From positions 348,045-412,044 of the forward strand of contig JBCDCY010000001.1 in the NCBI GenBank assembly GCA_039180875.1: a stretch of DNA of 64,000 bases, written 5' to 3'. The notes beneath the pieces were generated by a model. It ran no database searches. It saw nothing but the letters and a program-made list of their open reading frames with translations, and had not been told where the DNA came from. The stretch comes from Pseudomonadota bacterium. GTDB taxonomy: Bacteria; Pseudomonadota; Alphaproteobacteria; Rhodobacterales; Rhodobacteraceae. The position numbers and the translations under genes are program-made. This document shows positions 25,486 to 58,382 of the stretch, piece by piece (position 1 is the first letter of the stretch; the number at the start of each line of letters is the position of its first letter).

Positions 25486-27171
25486 ATGCCCGCGACGGCA
25501 AGTATCGACGAATTTGAAGCGCTCCTGAACGAAAGCCTGGAGCTGAAAACCCCCGAAGAAGGCACGGTCGTCAAAGGCGACGTGCTGGCCGTCGAAGGCG
25601 GCCATGCGGTGATCGACATCGGCTACAAGATGGAAGGCCGCGTCGATCTGAAGGAATTCCAGAAATACGGCGAGGACCAGGAGCTGGCGCCCGGTGACTC
25701 GGTCGAGGTCTACCTCGAGCGGGTGGAAAACGCCCGGGGCGAGGCGGTCATCAGCCGCGACAAGGCCCGCCGGGAAGAGGCGTGGGATCGCCTCGAGAAG
25801 GCCTATGAGGGCGACGGCCGGGTCGAAGGCCACATCTTCAACCGGGTGAAGGGCGGCTTCACCGTCGATCTCGGCGGCGCCGTGGCGTTCCTGCCGGGCT
25901 CCCAGGTCGATGTGCGCCCGGTGCGCGACGCGACGCCGCTGATGCACATCCCCCAGCCCTTCCAGATCCTCAAGATGGACCGGCGCCGGGGCAACATCGT
26001 CGTCTCCCGCCGCGCGGTGCTTGAGGAGAGCCGGGCCGAGCAGCGCGCCGAGATCGTCGCCAAGCTCAAGGAAGGCGACACCGTCGACGGCGTGGTCAAG
26101 AACATCACCGAATACGGCGCCTTCGTCGATCTGGGCGGTGTGGACGGCCTGCTGCACGTCACCGACATGGCCTGGCGCCGGGTCAATCATCCGTCGGAGA
26201 TCCTGTCGATCGGCGAGACCGTGAAGGTCCAGGTCGTCAAGATCAACAAGGAGACGCAGCGCATCAGCCTCGGCATGAAGCAGCTGCAGGCCGATCCGTG
26301 GGATGGGGTCGAGGGCAAGTACCCGATCGGCGCCGTCTTCACCGGGCGCGTCACCAACATCACCGACTACGGTGCCTTCGTCGAGCTCGAGGCCGGGGTC
26401 GAGGGCCTGGTCCACGTCTCCGAGATGAGCTGGACCAAGAAGAACGTACATCCGGGCAAGATCGTCTCCACCTCCCAGGAGGTCGAGGTGATGGTGCTGG
26501 AGATCGACACGGTGAAGCGTCGCGTCTCGCTTGGCCTCAAGCAGACCATGCGCAATCCGTGGGAGCTCTTCGCCGAGGCCTTCCCGGTCGGCTCCGAGGT
26601 CGAAGGCGAGGTGAAGAACATCACCGAGTTCGGCCTGTTCGTCGGGCTGGAGCACGACATCGACGGCATGGTCCACCTCTCCGATCTCGACTGGGATCGG
26701 TCGGGCGAGGATGCGATCCGCGACTACAAGAAGGGCGATCTGGTCCAGGCGGTAGTCACCGACGTGGACGTGGACAAGGAGCGGATCTCGCTCTCGATCA
26801 AGGCGCTCGGCGGCGATCCGTTCGTCGACAGCGTCTCCGACCTCAAGCGCGGTGCGATCGTCACGGTGGCGGTCACGGCGGTCGAGGACGGCGGGATCGA
26901 GGTGGAGTACAACGGCATGAAGTCGTTCATCCGCCGCTCCGACCTCAGCCGCGACCGCTCCGAGCAGCGGCCGGAGCGTTTTTCGGTCGGGGACAAGGTC
27001 GACGCCCGCGTCACCAACATCGACAAGGCGACGCGCCGGCTCGGCCTCTCGATCAAGGCTCGCGAGATCGCTGAGGAGAAGGAGGCCGTGGCGCAATACG
27101 GCTCCTCCGACAGCGGCGCCTCGCTCGGCGACATCCTTGGGGCAGCGCTGAAGAACCAAGAAAAATCGTGA
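25486..27171 (+). CDS. rpsA: 30S ribosomal protein S1
   Basis: Six S1 repeats; 561 aa. Confidence 0.95.
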   Translation: MPATASIDEFEALLNESLELKTPEEGTVVKGDVLAVEGGHAVIDIGYKMEGRVDLKEFQKYGEDQELAPGDSVEVYLERVENARGEAVISRDKARREEAWDRLEKAYEGDGRVEGHIFNRVKGGFTVDLGGAVAFLPGSQVDVRPVRDATPLMHIPQPFQILKMDRRRGNIVVSRRAVLEESRAEQRAEIVAKLKEGDTVDGVVKNITEYGAFVDLGGVDGLLHVTDMAWRRVNHPSEILSIGETVKVQVVKINKETQRISLGMKQLQADPWDGVEGKYPIGAVFTGRVTNITDYGAFVELEAGVEGLVHVSEMSWTKKNVHPGKIVSTSQEVEVMVLEIDTVKRRVSLGLKQTMRNPWELFAEAFPVGSEVEGEVKNITEFGLFVGLEHDIDGMVHLSDLDWDRSGEDAIRDYKKGDLVQAVVTDVDVDKERISLSIKALGGDPFVDSVSDLKRGAIVTVAVTAVEDGGIEVEYNGMKSFIRRSDLSRDRSEQRPERFSVGDKVDARVTNIDKATRRLGLSIKAREIAEEKEAVAQYGSSDSGASLGDILGAALKNQEKS

Positions 27172-28073
27172 GCCTTGAGCGCGATTTCTACGAGGAGCGG
27201 CGCCGACGCTGGCGCCGCTCCGCCTTTTGGCGTGGGGTGCTCGTCACCCTCGCCGTTCTGATCGGCCTCGGCGTGCTGGGTGCCGTCTTGGGCCGCGATG
27301 CCCAGCGCGGGCCGCACATCGCGCGGATCACCGTCACCGGCACGATCACCGACAATCCGGCCCGGGCGAAGCTGTTGGCCGAGGTGGCGCGCGACGCCAA
27401 CGCGCGGGCCGTGATCGTGCGCATCAACAGCCCCGGCGGCACCGTCGCGGGGTCGGAGGCGCTCTACACCAACCTCCGCGCCATCGCCGAGCAAAAGCCG
27501 CTGGTCGCCACGATGGGAGAGGTCGCGGCCTCCGGCGGCTATATCGCGGCGCTCGCGGCCGATCATGTGGTGGCGCGGGGCGGCACCATGACCGGCTCGA
27601 TCGGCGTGATCGTCGAATACCCCCAGGTGGCGGAGCTGCTGGATGATGTCGGCGTCGAGATCGTCACCATCCGCTCCTCCGACATCAAGGGCGGGCCGTC
27701 GCCCTTCCGCGACCTCGACCCGGCCCAACGGGCCGAGATCGAGCGGCTGATCGCCGACAGCAACGGCTGGTTCCGCGACCTGGTGGCCGACCGCCGCGGC
27801 CTGAGCGGCGCGGCGCTGGAGCAGGTGGCGACCGGCGGCGTCTTCACCGGCCGCATGGCCATCGACAGCGACCTGATCGACGCCATCGGCGGAGAGCAGG
27901 AGGCCCGCGCCTGGCTGACCGAACAGGATGCCGGGCTGGCCGACCTCCGGGTCCGCGACCGTAAAGTACCGCGCGAGGATCGCGGGCTGCTCCGCGAACT
28001 CTTGGGCTCGGAGACGCTGGACGCCGTGCTCGACCCGCAATGGACGCGCCGGCTGCTCGCCGTCTATCGCTAG
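27168..28073 (+). CDS. sppA: signal peptide peptidase SppA (S49 family, 36K type)
   Basis: N-terminal TM plus S49 catalytic region INSPGGTVAGSEALY...ASGGYIAALAADHV. Confidence 0.85.
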   Translation: MSLERDFYEERRRRWRRSAFWRGVLVTLAVLIGLGVLGAVLGRDAQRGPHIARITVTGTITDNPARAKLLAEVARDANARAVIVRINSPGGTVAGSEALYTNLRAIAEQKPLVATMGEVAASGGYIAALAADHVVARGGTMTGSIGVIVEYPQVAELLDDVGVEIVTIRSSDIKGGPSPFRDLDPAQRAEIERLIADSNGWFRDLVADRRGLSGAALEQVATGGVFTGRMAIDSDLIDAIGGEQEARAWLTEQDAGLADLRVRDRKVPREDRGLLRELLGSETLDAVLDPQWTRRLLAVYR

Positions 28074-28854: not shown

Positions 28855-29469
28855 GTGACGACGCCGGAGGCCATCGAGAGCGCGGTGTCGGCCGGCGCGG
28901 CCTGGCTCGGCTTCGTCTTCTTCGCGAAATCACCCCGGCATCTGACGATGGAGGCGGCGCGCACGCTCGCCGCCCAGGTGCCCGACGGCGTCGGCCGGGT
29001 GGCGCTCACGGTGGATGCGGAGGACACATTGCTCGACGCAGTCGAGGCGGCGATCGCGCCGACCCTCTGGCAACTGCATGGGCATGAGACCCCGGCGCGC
29101 GTCGCCGCGGTCCGGGAGGCGCGCGGCACGCCTGTGATGAAGTCGATCGGCATCGGCGCGGAGGCGGATCTGGCCCGCATCGCCGACTATGCCACCGTCG
29201 CCGACCGCCTGCTGATCGACGCTAAGCCCGCACCGGGGGCCGACCTGCCCGGCGGCAACGGCCTCACCTTCGACTGGCGGCTGATCGCCGGGCGTGACTG
29301 GCCCCGCCCCTGGATGCTGGCCGGCGGTCTGACGGCGGAGACGGTGGCGACCGCGGTCGAGCTCACCGGGGCGGCGAGCGTCGACGTCTCCTCCGGCGTC
29401 GAGGCGGCGCCCGGGCGAAAGGATCCAGCCAGGATCCGGGCCTTCATCGCCGCCGCCCACGCGGCCTGA
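28855..29469 (+). CDS. trpF: phosphoribosylanthranilate isomerase
   Basis: [12 protein letters not shown]...[10 protein letters not shown] TrpF N-terminus; the true start is probably upstream of the GTG at 28855 (in-frame LAQVKICG), start codon uncertain. Confidence 0.8.
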
Positions 29470-29524: not shown

Positions 29525-30748
29525 ATGATGGACGATCTTCCGCGCAACTCCTTCCGCGCCGGGCCGGATGCGAACGGCCGCTTCGGCGATTTCGGCGGCC
29601 GCTTCGTCTCTGAGACATTGATGCCGCTGATCCTGGAGCTCGAGGCCCAGTACCGCCACGCCAAGGACGATCCGACCTTCTGGGACGAGATGAACGACCT
29701 CTGGGCGTACTATGTCGGCCGCCCCTCGCCGCTCTACTTCGCGGAGCGGCTGACGCAGCATTTTGGCGGCGCCAAGATCTACCTGAAGCGCGACGAGCTG
29801 AACCACACCGGCGCCCACAAGATCAACAACGTGATGGGCCAGATCCTGCTTGCCCGGCGCATGGGCAAGACCCGGATCATCGCCGAGACGGGCGCCGGCC
29901 AGCACGGGGTGGCCACCGCCACGGTCTGCGCCCGCTTCGGGCTGAAGTGCATCGTCTTCATGGGCGCGACGGACGTGGAGCGGCAGAAGCCCAACGTCTT
30001 CCGCATGATGCTCCTAGGGGCAGAGGTCGTGCCCGTCACCTCCGGCCGCGCCACGCTGAAGGACGCGATGAACGAGGCGCTGCGCGACTGGGTGACCAAC
30101 GTCGCCGACACGTTCTACTGCATTGGCACGGTGGCAGGGCCGCATCCCTACCCAGCGATGGTGCGCGATTTCCAGTCGATCATCGGGCGCGAAACGCGCG
30201 AGCAGATGGAGGCAGCGGAGGGGCGGCTGCCCGACACGCTCGTCGCCTGCATCGGCGGCGGCTCGAACGCCATGGGCCTCTTCCATCCCTTCCTCGACGA
30301 TGAGGAGGTGCGGATCGTCGGCGTGGAGGCCGGCGGCCACGGCGTCGACGACAAGATGGAGCATGCGGCCTCGCTCACCGGCGGCCGGCCGGGGGTGCTG
30401 CACGGCAACCGCACCTATCTGCTGCAGGACGCAGACGGCCAGATCATCGAGGGCCACTCGATCTCCGCCGGCCTCGACTATCCCGGCATCGGGCCGGAGC
30501 ATGCCTGGCTGCACGAGGCGGGGCGGGTCGAATATGTCAGCGTGACGGATCAGGAGGCGCTCGAGGCTTTCCAGCTCTCCTGCCGGACGGAGGGGATCAT
30601 CCCCGCGCTGGAACCGGCTCACGCCCTCGCCCATGTGGCCAAGATCGCGCCGGACCTGCCGGCCGACCACCTGTTGGTGATGAACATGTGCGGCCGGGGC
30701 GACAAGGACATCTTCACCGTGGCCGAGGCGCTCGGCACCGAGATGTGA
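29525..30748 (+). CDS. trpB: tryptophan synthase beta chain
   Basis: PLP-lysine block HTGAHKINN and full TrpB signature; 407 aa. Confidence 0.95.
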
Positions 30749-30948
30749 CACCCCCTGTGGCCGCCAAGCCACACCCCCTCCAAGTTGCGACATTCTGTCA
30801 GAAACCGCTTGGTCCGAATCGTAGGCCCGACCTAGAAGGCGCGTCCCGTTCGCAAGCGGACGCATCCTAGCGGTCGGAGCTTCGGTCTCCGCCGGTGCGG
30901 TGGGCTGTGCCTTCCCGCATGCCAGGGGCAAACGCGACCGGACGGGAT

Positions 30949-31024
30949 GGGTATGTAGCTCAGTTTGGGAGAGCGCCGGGCATGGACCCGGAGGTCATCG
31001 GTTCGACTCCGGTCATATCCACCA
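30949..31024 (+). tRNA. tRNA-like sequence with full cloverleaf and CCA but only a 6-nt anticodon loop (CATGGA); isotype undetermined
   Basis: Acceptor GGGTATG/CATATCC, D-arm GCTCAGTTTGGGAGAGC, T-arm ATCGG-TTCGACT-CCGGT, encoded ACCA end; anticodon stem CCGGG/CCCGG encloses 6 nt, not 7. Confidence 0.45.
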
Positions 31025-31025
31025 C

Positions 31026-31100
31026 GACGTAGCTCAGGCTGGGTAGAGCAGCGGACATTGGATCCGTCGGTCGAGGGTTCGATTCCCTCCGTCCTACAAG
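31026..31100 (+). pseudogene. second tRNA-like sequence, degenerate (mismatched acceptor stem, no CCA)
   Basis: D-arm GCTCAGGCTGGGTAGAGC, anticodon arm GCGGA-CATTGGA-TCCGT, T-arm GAGGG-TTCGATT-CCCTC; 5' acceptor CACGACG pairs only 5/7 with CGTCCTA; overlaps the CCA end of the preceding tRNA-like sequence. Confidence 0.3.
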
Positions 31101-31432
31101 ACGCCACGTTTGTGTCGTGGAGACGAGAATGGGGTCCCGGGATCGGCTTGCGCGGCCGGTTCGGAGCGGGCGGTCGGGCTTCGGCCCGGCTGCGCCGTGA
31201 GGGATCGGTCGCGCCCGGGCCGTCGGCCGCTCGCGCGGATGATGGGCTAAGCCCCGTCGGGTCAGGCGACGGCACCCTGGTGTCCGAGCCCCGCCCGCCG
31301 GGCCGTAGCTCCGCTCGCCGCCGATCCGCCGCGCGGTCCGGCCCGCCGGTCCCGGGGCTCATCCCTGCGCCTTCGGGCGCGATGCTAGCGAAGGAGCGTT
31401 TCGGGCAGCAGCCCAAGGCGAGAGGAGGGTAG

Positions 31433-32569
31433 ATGATGCGTATTCTTGATCGACTCATCGGCATTCAGCGCGTGACCGTGCCGGAGAATCAGCGGGCCCT
31501 GGTGCTGGAGAAGGGGCGGTTCCGCACGATCCTGACCCCGGGTCGGCACATCCTGCCGGCGCGCCATGTTGAGATCGAGTGGCACGACCTCGCCGCCGTG
31601 GGCTTCACCTCGACCTATGCCACCGCGCTCCTCAGCGAGCGGCCGGATCTGGTGGCCGCGCACTTGACCGAAGTGCGCACCGAGGCGGGCGAGGTGGCGC
31701 TGATCCTGCGCGACGGCCAGCCGATCTCGCTGCTGCAGCCGCTCAACGTGGCGAGGCTCTGGACGGCCGTCGGACCGTGGGAGGTGCAGCGCGTCTCGAT
31801 CGCCGACAGCCTGGCGCTTGAGCCGGTGATGGCAGCGCGCCTGGCGCGGTTCGGCCCGCACCGCTGGTTCACCCAGCACGAGGTGGCCGAGGGTGCGGTG
31901 GGTCTGCTGACCGTCGACGGCGTCGCCTCGGGCACGCTCGGGCCGGGAACGCACCGGTTCTGGAACGTCAGCCGCAAGGTCGAGGTGCGCCAGATCGACA
32001 CCCGCTGGCGGGCCTACGACGTCTCGGGTCAGGAGATCCTGACCAAGGACCGGGTGACGCTGCGCGTCAACCTCGGCGCCGAGTACCGCGTGACCGATCC
32101 CGAACGGGCGGCCCGCGCGGTGCGCGATTTCGAGGAGGCGCTGCACCGGGCGCTGCAGTTCGCCTTCCGGCGGACCCTCGGCGCGCTCACCCTCGACCAG
32201 CTGCTGGCCGAGAAGGTGGCGGTCGATGCCGAGGCGGCGGAACGAGTCCGGACCGAGATGGCGGAGATCGGGCTCGAGGTCGGGGCGATCGCGCTCAAGG
32301 ACGTGATCCTGCCGGGCGAGATGCGCGAGATCCTGAACCGCGTCGTGGCGGCCGAGAAGGAGGCGGAGGCGAGTGTCATCCGCCGGCGTGAGGAAACGAA
32401 CGCCACGCGGGCGCTCCTCAACACCGCCAAGGTGATGGCCGAGAACCCGGTCATGCTGCGGCTGAAGGAGCTCGAGGCGCTCGAGACCATCTCGGCCCGG
32501 GTCGGCATGCTGACGGTGCATAACGGTGCCGATGGCCTGATGACCGACCTGGTCAAGCTCCGCGACTGA
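31433..32569 (+). CDS. SPFH/band-7 (slipin-like) domain protein without N-terminal TM and with an inserted domain of about 140 aa
   Basis: SPFH core blocks VTVPENQRALVLEKGRFRTILTPGRHIL ... QEILTKDRVTLRVNLGAEYRVTDPERA ... coiled C-terminus (VVAAEKEAEASVIRRREE); RBS GAGGAGGG before the ATG. Confidence 0.7.
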   Translation: MMRILDRLIGIQRVTVPENQRALVLEKGRFRTILTPGRHILPARHVEIEWHDLAAVGFTSTYATALLSERPDLVAAHLTEVRTEAGEVALILRDGQPISLLQPLNVARLWTAVGPWEVQRVSIADSLALEPVMAARLARFGPHRWFTQHEVAEGAVGLLTVDGVASGTLGPGTHRFWNVSRKVEVRQIDTRWRAYDVSGQEILTKDRVTLRVNLGAEYRVTDPERAARAVRDFEEALHRALQFAFRRTLGALTLDQLLAEKVAVDAEAAERVRTEMAEIGLEVGAIALKDVILPGEMREILNRVVAAEKEAEASVIRRREETNATRALLNTAKVMAENPVMLRLKELEALETISARVGMLTVHNGADGLMTDLVKLRD

Positions 32570-32693
32570 ACCCTGCCCGCGCCTTCCGGGGCGCGGGCAT
32601 CCCGCCATCCCGCCCGGCGCGAATCCGCTGGACCTCACCCCGAGGGAGGGCTAAGCGAGCGGCGCGCATAAGCGCGTCAGCGGAGATAGGTGG

Positions 32694-33026
32694 ATGGCGG
32701 ACTTTCAGGTGGGCGACCTCGTCGTTCTCACATGCGGCTCGATGCGCATGGCGGTCGAGGGCGTGGACGAGGCGGGCGTCGCCTGCCTCTGGTGCCACGA
32801 AGGCGTCATCGGCCGCGACCGGTTCGACGCGAGGCTGCTGCGCAAGTGGGAGCATCGCGAGCCCGACGGCGACGACCGCCGGCCCAAGGGCGGCAAATCC
32901 TTCGGCGGCGACCGCGCCGGCGGCGGCCGCAAATACGCCGGCAACACCGACAAGCCCAAACCCAAACCGAAGACCGGCTGGGACGGCAAGCCGCGCGAAA
33001 AGACCTACTTCCGCAAGGACGGCTGA
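32694..33026 (+). CDS. DUF2158 (YodC-like) small protein with basic Gly/Lys/Pro-rich C-terminal tail
   Basis: FQVGDLVVLTCGSMRMAV...ACLWCHEGVIGRDRFDARLL matches the DUF2158 pattern; tail KPKPKPKTGWDGKPREK. Confidence 0.6.
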   Translation: MADFQVGDLVVLTCGSMRMAVEGVDEAGVACLWCHEGVIGRDRFDARLLRKWEHREPDGDDRRPKGGKSFGGDRAGGGRKYAGNTDKPKPKPKTGWDGKPREKTYFRKDG

Positions 33027-33499
33027 TGCCGCTGGGGCTGCTTCAGCCGGGCGCCACGGGGTTCTGGTCGCACAAGAAGGCACCCTTGCTCGAACACGAC
33101 CCGAAGGACTGCCGCCGCGTGGCCGAGGCCGTCGCACACGCCGCTGGCGCTGCCCATTGGTCGGTCGCGCCGATGCCTGAGGACGAACCGCACGAGACCT
33201 TCCGCCGGTTCACGGTCCCCGTGGCCGACGGCATGCTGCAATGCCTTACCCATCGCTACCTCCGCATCACGGCCCTGGTGCCCGAGGATTGGAACGTCTG
33301 GGACCCGGTGTTTCCCGAGATCATCTGCGATGCCGATCAGGTGCAGCGCGAGGTCGGCTGGACCCTAGCGACCTCGTATGAGCTGAACGCGCCGCTAGAC
33401 AGCGACACCGCCGCTGCGCTCTCGAAAGCAGAGCTTGAGATGGCGAAGGGCTGGCAGGCAGGCTCGGCTGGCGCGATCCTCTTCAATGCGTGGGATTGA
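33026..33499 (+). CDS. hypothetical protein, translationally coupled to the DUF2158 gene (ATGA overlap) and ending 3 nt before the trpA start codon
   Basis: 157-aa ORF with high GC3; start overlaps the upstream stop; no recognisable domain. Confidence 0.45.
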   Translation: MPLGLLQPGATGFWSHKKAPLLEHDPKDCRRVAEAVAHAAGAAHWSVAPMPEDEPHETFRRFTVPVADGMLQCLTHRYLRITALVPEDWNVWDPVFPEIICDADQVQREVGWTLATSYELNAPLDSDTAAALSKAELEMAKGWQAGSAGAILFNAWD

Positions 33500-33502
33500 G
33501 GG

Positions 33503-34294
33503 ATGGGACGGATCGAGGAGACATTCGCGGGATTGAAGGCAAAGGGACAAAAAGCCTTCGTCGCGTTCGTCATGGCCGGCGATCCGGACTACGACCGGGC
33601 ATTGGAGATCGTCCGGGGCTTGCCCGGGGCCGGGGTCGATATCATCGAGCTCGGCATGCCGTTCACCGATCCGATGGCCGATGGTCCGGCGATCCAGCGG
33701 GCTGGGCAGCGGGCGCTAGCGGCGGGCATGACGCTCACCCGAACCCTCGACCTGGTCAGGGCCTTTCGCACCGGGGACGACACGACGCCCATCGTGCTGA
33801 TGGGCTACTACAACCCGATCTACGCCCGGGGCGTCACCGCCTTTCTGGCGGAGGCGGCGGAGGCCGGGGTGGACGGTCTGATCGTGGTCGACCTGCCGCC
33901 GGAGGAGGACAGCGAGCTTTGCCTTCCGGCCCAGGAAGCGGGCCTCGACTTCATTCGCCTGGCGACGCCTACCACGGACGACGCGCGGTTGCCGGCGGTG
34001 CTGCGCAACACTTCGGGCTTCGTCTACTACGTCTCGATCACCGGCATCACCGGCGCGGCAGAGGCCTCGGCCGGCGCTGTCGGGCCGGAGGTGGCGCGCC
34101 TGAAAGCCGCCACCGGTCTGCCGGTCTGCGTCGGCTTCGGTATCAAGACACCGGAGGCGGCCCAGGCCATCGCCGGCATCGCCGACGGTGCGGTCGTGGG
34201 CTCGGCCATCGTCGATCGCATCGGGGCCGGCGAAAAGACAGCAGAGGTGCTTCGCTTCGTCGCCAGCCTGGCCGAGGCGACGCACAGCGCTTAG
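33503..34294 (+). CDS. trpA: tryptophan synthase alpha chain
   Basis: [49 protein letters not shown] TrpA signature. Confidence 0.95.
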
Positions 34295-58305: not shown

Positions 58306-58382
58306 GGCGGAGTAGCTCAGTTGGTTAGAGCAGCGGAATCATAATCCGCGTGTCGGGGGTTCAAGTCCCTCCTCCGCTACCA
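58306..58382 (+). tRNA. tRNA-Met (anticodon CAT; could alternatively be the lysidine-modified tRNA-Ile2)
   Basis: 77-nt cloverleaf: acceptor GGCGGAG/CTCCGCT, D-arm GCTCAGTTGGTTAGAGC, anticodon arm GCGGA-ATCATAA-TCCGC, T-arm GGGGG-TTCAAGT-CCCTC, encoded CCA. Confidence 0.85.

Follow-up and report, generated by a model that had tools for sequence, protein, structure and literature searches.

Tandem tRNA-like domains in a conserved leader RNA upstream of a slipin gene between trpB and trpA of a Rhodobacteraceae genome

We analysed a 64,000-nucleotide (nt) stretch of a Rhodobacteraceae genome (GenBank assembly GCA_039180875.1, contig JBCDCY010000001.1, positions 348,045 to 412,044 of the forward strand; hereafter the window, numbered from its first letter), in which the genes for the two tryptophan synthase subunits, trpB and trpA, do not adjoin. 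Between the end of trpB at 30748 and the start of trpA at 33503 lie two tandem tRNA-like sequences and three open reading frames (ORFs) on the + strand, which encode a slipin, a YodC-like protein and a protein of 157 amino acids (aa) that we call orf157 (Table 1). An earlier note on this DNA, made from the letters alone, had described much of this correctly: the boundaries and the non-trp genes between them are confirmed by the ORF list and Pfam, the two tRNA-like sequences on the + strand by ARAGORN and Rfam, and the three genes on the trp strand by the ORF list. The last gene is also tightly coupled to trpA, as the note had it, since three bases separate its stop codon (33497-33499) from the trpA ATG. 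We differ in how the stretch is to be understood. The note took it for a cassette that interrupts a contiguous operon, while our best explanation, which we consider likely as a whole, is that these 2.75 kb consist of two old, independent units lying side by side. Unit 1 (about 30809-32569) is a promoter, a structured leader RNA and the gene of a soluble slipin; Unit 2 is the YodC-like gene and orf157, a translationally coupled pair.

Table 1. Features of the trpB-trpA region, in window coordinates, with the basis of each call
Feature	Position	Strand	Basis
trpF	28855-29469	+	Pfam
trpB, upstream boundary	29525-30748	+	Pfam PALP, E 8e-44
Predicted sigma-70-type promoter	30809-30837	+	Conserved boxes in aligned loci
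Structured leader/noncoding RNA, b7a-tRNA-type, ~590 nt	30843-31432	+	Conservation, covariation
5' domain, three-way junction	30862-30929	+	RNAalifold, shuffles, covariance model R2
tRNA-like domain 1	30949-31021, CCA to 31024	+	ARAGORN; Rfam tRNA, 54.2 bits
tRNA-like domain 2	31023-31097	+	ARAGORN; Rfam tRNA, 44.3 bits
3' domain	31132-31360	+	RNAalifold, 34 alphaproteobacterial loci
Possible 16-codon upstream ORF, TAG abutting the slipin ATG	31382-31432	+	Read from sequence
Slipin ORF, 378 aa	31433-32569	+	Band_7, E 2e-32
YodC/DUF2158-like ORF, 110 aa	32694-33026	+	ORF list; JGI homolog names
orf157, 157 aa	33026-33499	+	ORF list; HMMER relatives
trpA, downstream boundary	33503-34294	+	Pfam Trp_syntA, E 9e-95

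The two tRNA-like domains stand head-to-tail, 336-484 nt upstream of the slipin gene and on its strand, with scores well above chance. One could read them as ordinary tRNA genes, or as decaying pseudogenes, that lie between trpB and the slipin gene. This is suggested by the scores, which exceed the Rfam tRNA gathering score of 29, and by domain 1, which has a 7-bp acceptor stem, canonical D- and T-arms and a discriminator A followed by an encoded CCA (31022-31024). However, the anticodon loop of domain 1 has 6 nt in the window and anything from 2 to 9 nt across its orthologs, and ARAGORN leaves it unassigned ("tRNA-???"). Domain 2 has a shortened acceptor stem with two mismatches and the loop CAUUGGA, and it lacks both U33 and CCA. 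Neither domain combines the 7-nt loop with U33, the conserved anticodon and the intact acceptor of a functional tRNA gene. Moreover, the "anticodons" differ at nearly every ortholog locus while the stems covary, which indicates that the shape of the RNA is selected and its decoding identity is not. Compensatory changes were found at 23 of the 36 pairs of the tandem in the seed alignment, and in a 91-row alignment made with our covariance model of the tandem (R1) pairing is kept in 97.5% of cells, with covariation at 34 of the 36 pairs; the window scores 141.5 bits against this model. As retention across two proteobacterial classes is not expected of pseudogenes either, we regard the reading as tRNA genes or pseudogenes as very improbable.

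Certain details of the two domains are nonetheless kept. The loop of domain 2 has 7 nt in 57 of the 63 full-length tandem pairs, with the consensus C-U-N-N-U-A-A: C32, U33, U36, A37 and A38 are mostly retained and positions 34 and 35 are free, a pattern that resembles that of tRNAs reading ANN codons. The linker between the domains is 4-6 nt long and often reads NCCA(C), CCA being present there at 40 of 63 loci compared with 23% expected from composition. We had also considered an alanine identity for domain 1, which carries G3:U70 in the window, and rejected it, as only about 7 of 76 orthologs have this pair.

The tandem is embedded in a larger element. When we aligned the 800 nt upstream of the slipin gene from 81 loci, sequence conservation extended over about 30753-31360. 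The leader is laid out as a 5' domain, the two tRNA-like domains, a 3' domain and a Shine-Dalgarno (SD) region, and the element measures 496-616 nt among 46 non-redundant loci. Just upstream lie a -35 box, TTGGTC (30809-30814), and, after a 17-nt spacer, a -10 box, CTAGAA (30832-30837). In an alignment of 45 loci both boxes are conserved, as TTG and CTA(T) with one invariant A, and their spacing is fixed, which leads us to predict an RNA start near 30843. A generic promoter scan, whose consensus is that of E. coli, did not call this promoter. No terminator-like site was found between 30600 and 34500.

Both flanking domains of the leader carry signs of selection on structure. The 5' domain is closed by helix P1 (30862-30868/30924-30929), within which lie P2 (30872-30879/30887-30893) and P3 (30895-30900/30915-30920), the latter with a tip helix (30903-04/30910-11). 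RNAalifold found compensatory changes at 16 of 21 pairs; 95.4% of cells are paired, as against 42-54% in slid controls, and none of 500 shuffles reached the observed value. Across both proteobacterial classes the figure is 93.4%, and the window scores 94.5 bits against a covariance model of this domain (R2). The 3' domain is closed by a long-range helix with its core at 31139-31142/31350-31353, and contains nested helices (31221-31246/31309-31334) with the conserved strands GAUGAnGG and CCGCUC; 19 of its 25 pairs are compensatory in the 34 alphaproteobacterial loci. An RNAalifold consensus fold of the trimmed 3' core gave 0 pairs. No known RNA family accounts for the leader: Rfam 15, at gathering thresholds and at E<=1, returned only tRNA, a weak YrlA match and noise. 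On the strength of this conservation and covariation we take the predicted leader structure and its promoter to be real.

We asked how closely this RNA and the slipin gene are linked by searching in both directions. A forward scan with one genome per species gave 80 slipin loci in Rhodobacterales and Hyphomicrobiales, including loci of Mesorhizobium, Rhizobium, Devosia, Labrys and Breoghania. About 77 of these have one or two tRNA-like matches on the slipin strand, 300-650 nt ahead of the slipin start, and in Roseovarius, a Rhodobacteraceae strain and Nitratireductor the slipin gene is preceded by a gene-free gap of 650-900 bp with tRNA-like matches. For the reverse test, a 22-base motif from the 5' domain was scanned over public collections and picked out more than 120 metagenome stretches, 50 of which have at least 900 nt of downstream DNA and serve as the denominator. 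By tblastn, 43 of these 50 encode a slipin homolog 440-860 nt downstream on the same strand. Inspection of six of the seven exceptions revealed a slipin start that is cut by the contig end or truncated in four cases and a chance motif match in coding DNA in two. There are thus about 48 genuine motif-picked loci, with the slipin detected in 43 by tblastn and in four more on inspection. Neither covariance model matches the two chance loci, nor the slipin-less loci that encode trpB and a YodC-like protein (L085-L087, L209, L214), and the motif occurs in none of 2.9 million viral contigs. In these searches, the pairing of RNA and slipin is essentially obligate in both directions. Two individual loci are unusual: the slipin ORF of L092 stops after about 120 aa and may be a pseudogene or part of a chimeric contig, and L090, a 1.1-kb contig, carries the 5'-domain motif twice, 490 nt apart.

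The reverse test also extended the pairing beyond Alphaproteobacteria. Most motif-picked slipins are about 40% identical to the window slipin and align over its full length, and exact look-up showed that two of them are annotated in Dyella and Arenimonas (Lysobacterales, Gammaproteobacteria) as "slipin family proteins". Model R1, though built on alphaproteobacterial sequences only, scores the gammaproteobacterial loci at 88-140 bits, and against R2 they reach 42-65 bits over the structured core. Clustering of neighbouring ORFs at 127 loci revealed no partner gene common to both classes. In Lysobacterales-type loci, the gene directly after the slipin gene, on the same strand, encodes the RNA ligase family protein RtcB (PF01139, E 3e-50), which follows the slipin in 23 motif-picked loci by ORF clustering and in 40 by tblastn. 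The gammaproteobacterial leaders also have an analogous closed 3' domain, of different sequence. In the Lysobacterales-type leaders (L088-L206) this domain is closed by GGAAACGCCCC...GGGGCGTTTCC, unlike the alphaproteobacterial one, and these leaders have a conserved terminal hairpin followed by ACCACCAGAGCCAAC and AAGGAG.

The slipin itself belongs to a large family, with thousands of homologs, of which the best are 60-67% identical, of the same length and from Rhodobacterales. In the AlphaFold2 (AF2) model, which has a pLDDT of 81.6, a confidently predicted, beta-rich N-terminal region (about residues 10-190) leads into an SPFH core (190-295), and a long C-terminal helix follows. The earlier note had called this gene an SPFH/Band-7 protein with an inserted domain; the family assignment stands, and what was taken for an insert is a conserved beta-rich N-terminal extension of about 180-185 aa. 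We found no hydrophobic or transmembrane segment in the sequence, and the protein is predicted to be soluble, unlike classical SPFH proteins. It thus differs from the membrane SPFH cages formed by stomatin, HflK-C and QmcA in lacking a transmembrane or membrane-anchor segment, in having the additional N-terminal region, and in its gene neighbours, as no conserved NfeD or FtsH partner gene is found beside the slipin across loci and none is present in the window unit. There is a structural likeness to the major vault protein (MVP), which shares the beta-rich N-terminal modules, SPFH-like shoulder and long helix; Foldseek aligned the slipin model with MVP over 430-480 columns with E about 1e-10. 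Like the vault protein, the slipin is associated with a small structured RNA, here by linkage of the genes.

A bacterial system with these ingredients has already been predicted. Wang, Chen, Wolin and Xiong (bioRxiv 10.1101/312249) refer to a prediction by Burroughs and Aravind (Nucleic Acids Res 2016, 44:8525) that RtcB is found in certain bacteria beside a Band-7 protein and a noncoding RNA (ncRNA), b7a-tRNA. In their account b7a-tRNA is proposed to be functionally redundant with Rsr/YrlA, and it is suggested that tRNA-like domains may compete with anticodon nucleases (10.1101/312249). Like this module, the window has a Band-7/SPFH protein and a tRNA-like ncRNA adjoining its gene, and its RNA and slipin are homologous to those of the RtcB-linked Lysobacterales loci, as judged by the covariance-model scores, the common 5'-domain motif and the full-length slipin alignment at 40% identity. 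The Burroughs and Aravind abstract reportedly speaks of "SPFH/Band-7 modules" with "a novel tRNA-like molecule" as potential scaffolding cofactors. There are also differences. No RtcB gene adjoins the slipin gene in the window or in the other alphaproteobacterial members; the tRNA look-alike is doubled, and the tandem forms part of a multi-domain leader of ~590 nt that has a promoter to itself; and the Alphaproteobacteria have a mini upstream ORF (uORF), described below. Because the RNA-slipin pair is homologous to that of the Lysobacterales RtcB loci, and these correspond to the predicted module, we assign Unit 1, by homology, as an RtcB-less, trp-embedded member of the Band-7/b7a-tRNA module. 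The earlier note's view of an uncharacterised module must be amended to this extent. The tandem multi-domain RNA, its flanking domains, the dedicated promoter, the RtcB-less alphaproteobacterial members and the mini-uORF may be new. Full-text literature searches on tRNA-like elements with SPFH proteins, stomatins or slipins brought up no relevant paper.

Other systems bear a more distant resemblance. The Rsr (Ro60) protein with Y RNA/YrlA, as found in rsr-yrlBA-rtcBA operons, likewise sets a tRNA-mimicking ncRNA beside a putative scaffold protein, with RtcB in some taxa. However, none of the three ORFs matches TROVE/Ro60 in Pfam or NCBIfam, and the tRNA-like units of the window are complete cloverleaves in normal order, whereas YrlA is a permuted mimic on a Ro-binding stem. 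Matches of the YrlA covariance model across the junction of the two tRNA-like domains are weak, with 20.4 bits for the window and no more than 32 in relatives, the gathering score being 69. In the tufB operon co-transcripts and MALAT1-mascRNA, tRNA shapes also lie within a longer transcript, where RNase P or RNase Z could cut them and so set the ends of RNAs. The window elements differ from these in being non-decoding and conserved within a larger fold, and their processing would have to be postulated.

From these comparisons a working model can be sketched. The promoter just after trpB would drive an RNA of ~590 nt that runs without a terminator into the slipin gene. The tRNA-like domains keep the acceptor/T-arm stack, the elbow formed by the D- and T-loops and often NCCA, and so could be handled by tRNA-processing enzymes, which would excise them; given the short NCCA(C) linker, domain 1 would be left with a CCA end close to the mature form once RNase P had cut at domain 2. 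The excised RNA, or the whole leader, might then associate with oligomeric slipin, and the complex might serve the surveillance and repair of tRNA or RNA damage as a tRNA mimic, decoy or tether, acting with the adjacent RtcB in Lysobacterales and without a linked ligase in Alphaproteobacteria. Excision, slipin association and a repair role are inferred here on the pattern of Rsr with Y RNA and of the suggested competition with anticodon nucleases.

Several observations weigh against this model. The 64-kb window and the alphaproteobacterial loci yielded neither RtcB nor RtcA nor Rsr (for RtcB, by tblastn over the window and L002-L084), so that the link to repair runs only through homology with Lysobacterales. 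Regular-expression searches and MAFFT did not establish that the 3' domains of the alpha- and gammaproteobacterial loci are homologous in sequence. The preprint cited above describes b7a-tRNA as being without experimental validation (10.1101/312249). Finally, a purely cis-regulatory leader would fit equally well with two features of the region, namely conservation that continues right up to the SD sequence and the mini-uORF. The latter occurs with an SD sequence at -47 to -16 relative to the slipin start in 67 of the 83 alphaproteobacterial leaders (L002-L084) under a strict test, reading TTG-CGA-CGA-CGA-TAG (MRRR and stop) in Rhodobacterales and ATG-ACN-TGA/TAG (MT and stop) in Hyphomicrobiales. 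The 16-codon uORF that we noticed in the window is a possible counterpart.

Such a leader would be nothing other than a cis-acting 5' untranslated region, in which the folds and the mini-uORF set slipin translation or mRNA stability in answer to a signal, for instance the state of a tRNA-processing or translation factor able to recognise the tRNA-like elbow, and it would involve neither a ribonucleoprotein nor a role in repair. The constant position of the RNA directly upstream of the slipin gene, on the same strand and without a terminator, is what this alternative predicts, as are the uninterrupted conservation and the mini-uORF. Yet the mini-uORF is absent from the gammaproteobacterial loci, and SD sequestration is not systematic: the SD mean pairing probability is 0.456, compared with 0.460 in shuffles, and we rejected a riboswitch-type platform of this kind on that basis. 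Moreover, 590 nt with two complete tRNA shapes far exceed the needs of known leaders, and the RtcB linkage in Lysobacterales, together with the analogy to Rsr and Y RNA, suggests an RNA partner that acts in trans. We therefore judge a purely cis-acting leader to be unlikely, if by no means negligible, and prefer the working model above.

We turn now to Unit 2. Its first gene, whose stop codon shares one base with the start of orf157 (TGATG), had been described in the earlier note as a DUF2158 protein with a basic tail. The tail is borne out: the 110-aa protein has an acidic N-terminal domain and a basic Gly/Arg/Lys-rich tail, and the isoelectric point of its C-terminal half is 10. The family name rests on the 401 homologs, many of them named YodC (DUF2158 family) by JGI, including dozens of 60-70% identity (COG-based names); the protein itself does not match Pfam DUF2158 (PF09926) even at E<=10, and a BLASTP comparison with an approximate sequence of E. 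coli YodC gave no alignment. The YodC-like proteins end in a conserved motif, KTGWDGKPRxKx followed by YF or FY and then RKD. Homologs are 110-166 aa long in total, with a Gly/Arg/Asp-rich linker of very variable length. The basic, RGG-like composition of the tail hints at nucleic-acid binding.

A word-indexed search had returned no relatives for orf157, and the earlier note listed it as an unknown. An exhaustive HMMER scan recovered 28 relatives, about 20 of them full-length, and these, together with a confident AF2 model (pLDDT 92.8), exclude an orphan or a non-gene. The family, which is undescribed, has G-x-T-G-F near the N-terminus and an invariant F-N-x-W-D at the C-terminus. Its fold had no convincing neighbour in the PDB, and orf157 shows no similarity to the unknown ORFs that lie beside slipin or yodC genes in other loci.

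The two genes of Unit 2 occur together elsewhere. Close homologs, marine ones among them, fall into three contig sets (L208; L209/L210; L214-L216). The order trpB-yodC-like-orf157-like-trpA is found in L209 and in L214-L216; in L208 the pair, and in L210 the orf157-like gene, stands directly before trpA, trpB being unconfirmed in both. In L208, L209 and L214 the gene just ahead of the orf157 homolog is 35-55% identical to the YodC-like gene of the window, and throughout the three sets the stops and starts of these genes overlap or abut, with neither the RNA nor a slipin present. The pair is thus a conserved fixture before trpA, and in at least two contig sets trpB lies on its other side; going by this arrangement it is probably co-expressed with trpA. 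A YodC-like gene also follows trpB, without a slipin, in L085, L087 and L086, the locus of an Amaricoccus macauensis homolog. Remoter members of the orf157 family lie outside trp operons. One, in L211, is found among unannotated genes next to a DDE transposase, which shows that the family has other contexts.

With both units described, we can ask whether the stretch was inserted. The earlier note proposed a mobile cassette that had integrated at the tRNA-like sites into a contiguous trpB-trpA pair and carried a three-gene module, possibly with a role in defence. In its favour, tRNA genes are well known as places where mobile elements integrate, and none of these genes has an obvious part in making tryptophan. 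The RNA-slipin pair, moreover, has unrelated surroundings in Hyphomicrobiales and in Lysobacterales and has thus moved at some time in its evolution. The evidence from the window and its relatives contradicts the proposal all the same. The three ORFs include no integrase, transposase or recombinase, and a repeat search found no att-like flanking direct repeats, nor a copy of a tRNA 3' end at the far border. The GC content at third codon positions (GC3) is 0.90-0.91 for the genes of the stretch and 0.91 for trpB, and neither GC nor GC3 distinguishes them from the flanking genes. The absence of att-like repeats and the native GC3 make a recent insertion unlikely. The supposed integration sites, for their part, belong to an RNA under structural selection that is tied to the slipin. 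A role in defence finds no backing either, as none of the three proteins matches a PADLOC model at E<=1 and the viral contigs lack the RNA motif.

Comparison with relatives points the same way. The order rpsA-ihfB-lapA-trpF-trpB-RNA-slipin is common to many Rhodobacterales, and where the RNA-slipin unit follows trpB in Rhodobacterales, that trpB is 80-88% identical to the one in the window. As the slipin unit follows trpB throughout Rhodobacterales, we regard its position as ancestral; an ancestral arrangement in relatives is what the earlier note had itself named as refuting its reading. Nor do the three genes travel together as one module. RNA and slipin occur without the two small genes in nearly all loci, and the YodC-like gene and orf157 occur without RNA and slipin. 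In L013 and L027 a yodC-like gene follows the slipin. Three partial syntenies, trpB-RNA-slipin, slipin-yodC and trpB-yodC-orf157-trpA (L209, L214), overlap in the window, which may therefore hold the fullest version of an old neighbourhood. We consider the mobile cassette hardly credible, and retain the explanation by two old units.

Two observations concern the surroundings. A Peptidase_S49 (sppA-like) gene lies between rpsA and ihfB at 27168-28073, as it does in L086; it is missing from this position in roseobacter-type loci, which hints at the place of this metagenome-assembled genome among its relatives. The only canonical tRNA of the window is an ordinary tRNA-Met (CAT) gene at 58306-58382, with 66.6 bits.

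What the locus means depends in part on how far the model is taken. At its boldest, b7a-tRNA would be a large (~560-600 nt) multi-domain RNA that assembles with a soluble, cage-forming SPFH protein carrying vault-like beta modules, and in Alphaproteobacteria the particle would do without a dedicated RtcB ligase. We think this doubtful and offer it as speculation. If true, bacteria would have a ribonucleoprotein akin to the vault or to Ro with its Y RNA, which in Alphaproteobacteria might, for instance, sense nucleases that target tRNA or act as their decoy. At the least, a misreading is corrected in which a tRNA-like sequence was taken for an integration site. Since Rfam has no family for the RNA, genome annotation breaks the module up into isolated "pseudo-tRNAs" and a "slipin family protein". 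The RNA turns out to be far bigger and more complex than one tRNA mimic, and we now have covariance models and coordinates for it. Unit 2 poses a second puzzle, that of two conserved, translationally coupled small proteins whose genes, beyond the window, sit between those of the two tryptophan synthase subunits in at least two contig sets and ahead of trpA in a third. The Band-7/b7a-tRNA module is among the few predicted bacterial RNA-protein systems that have never been tested, and it is widespread in cultivable bacteria, from Rhodobacterales such as Ruegeria and Roseovarius to Mesorhizobium, Rhizobium and, in Lysobacterales, Dyella.

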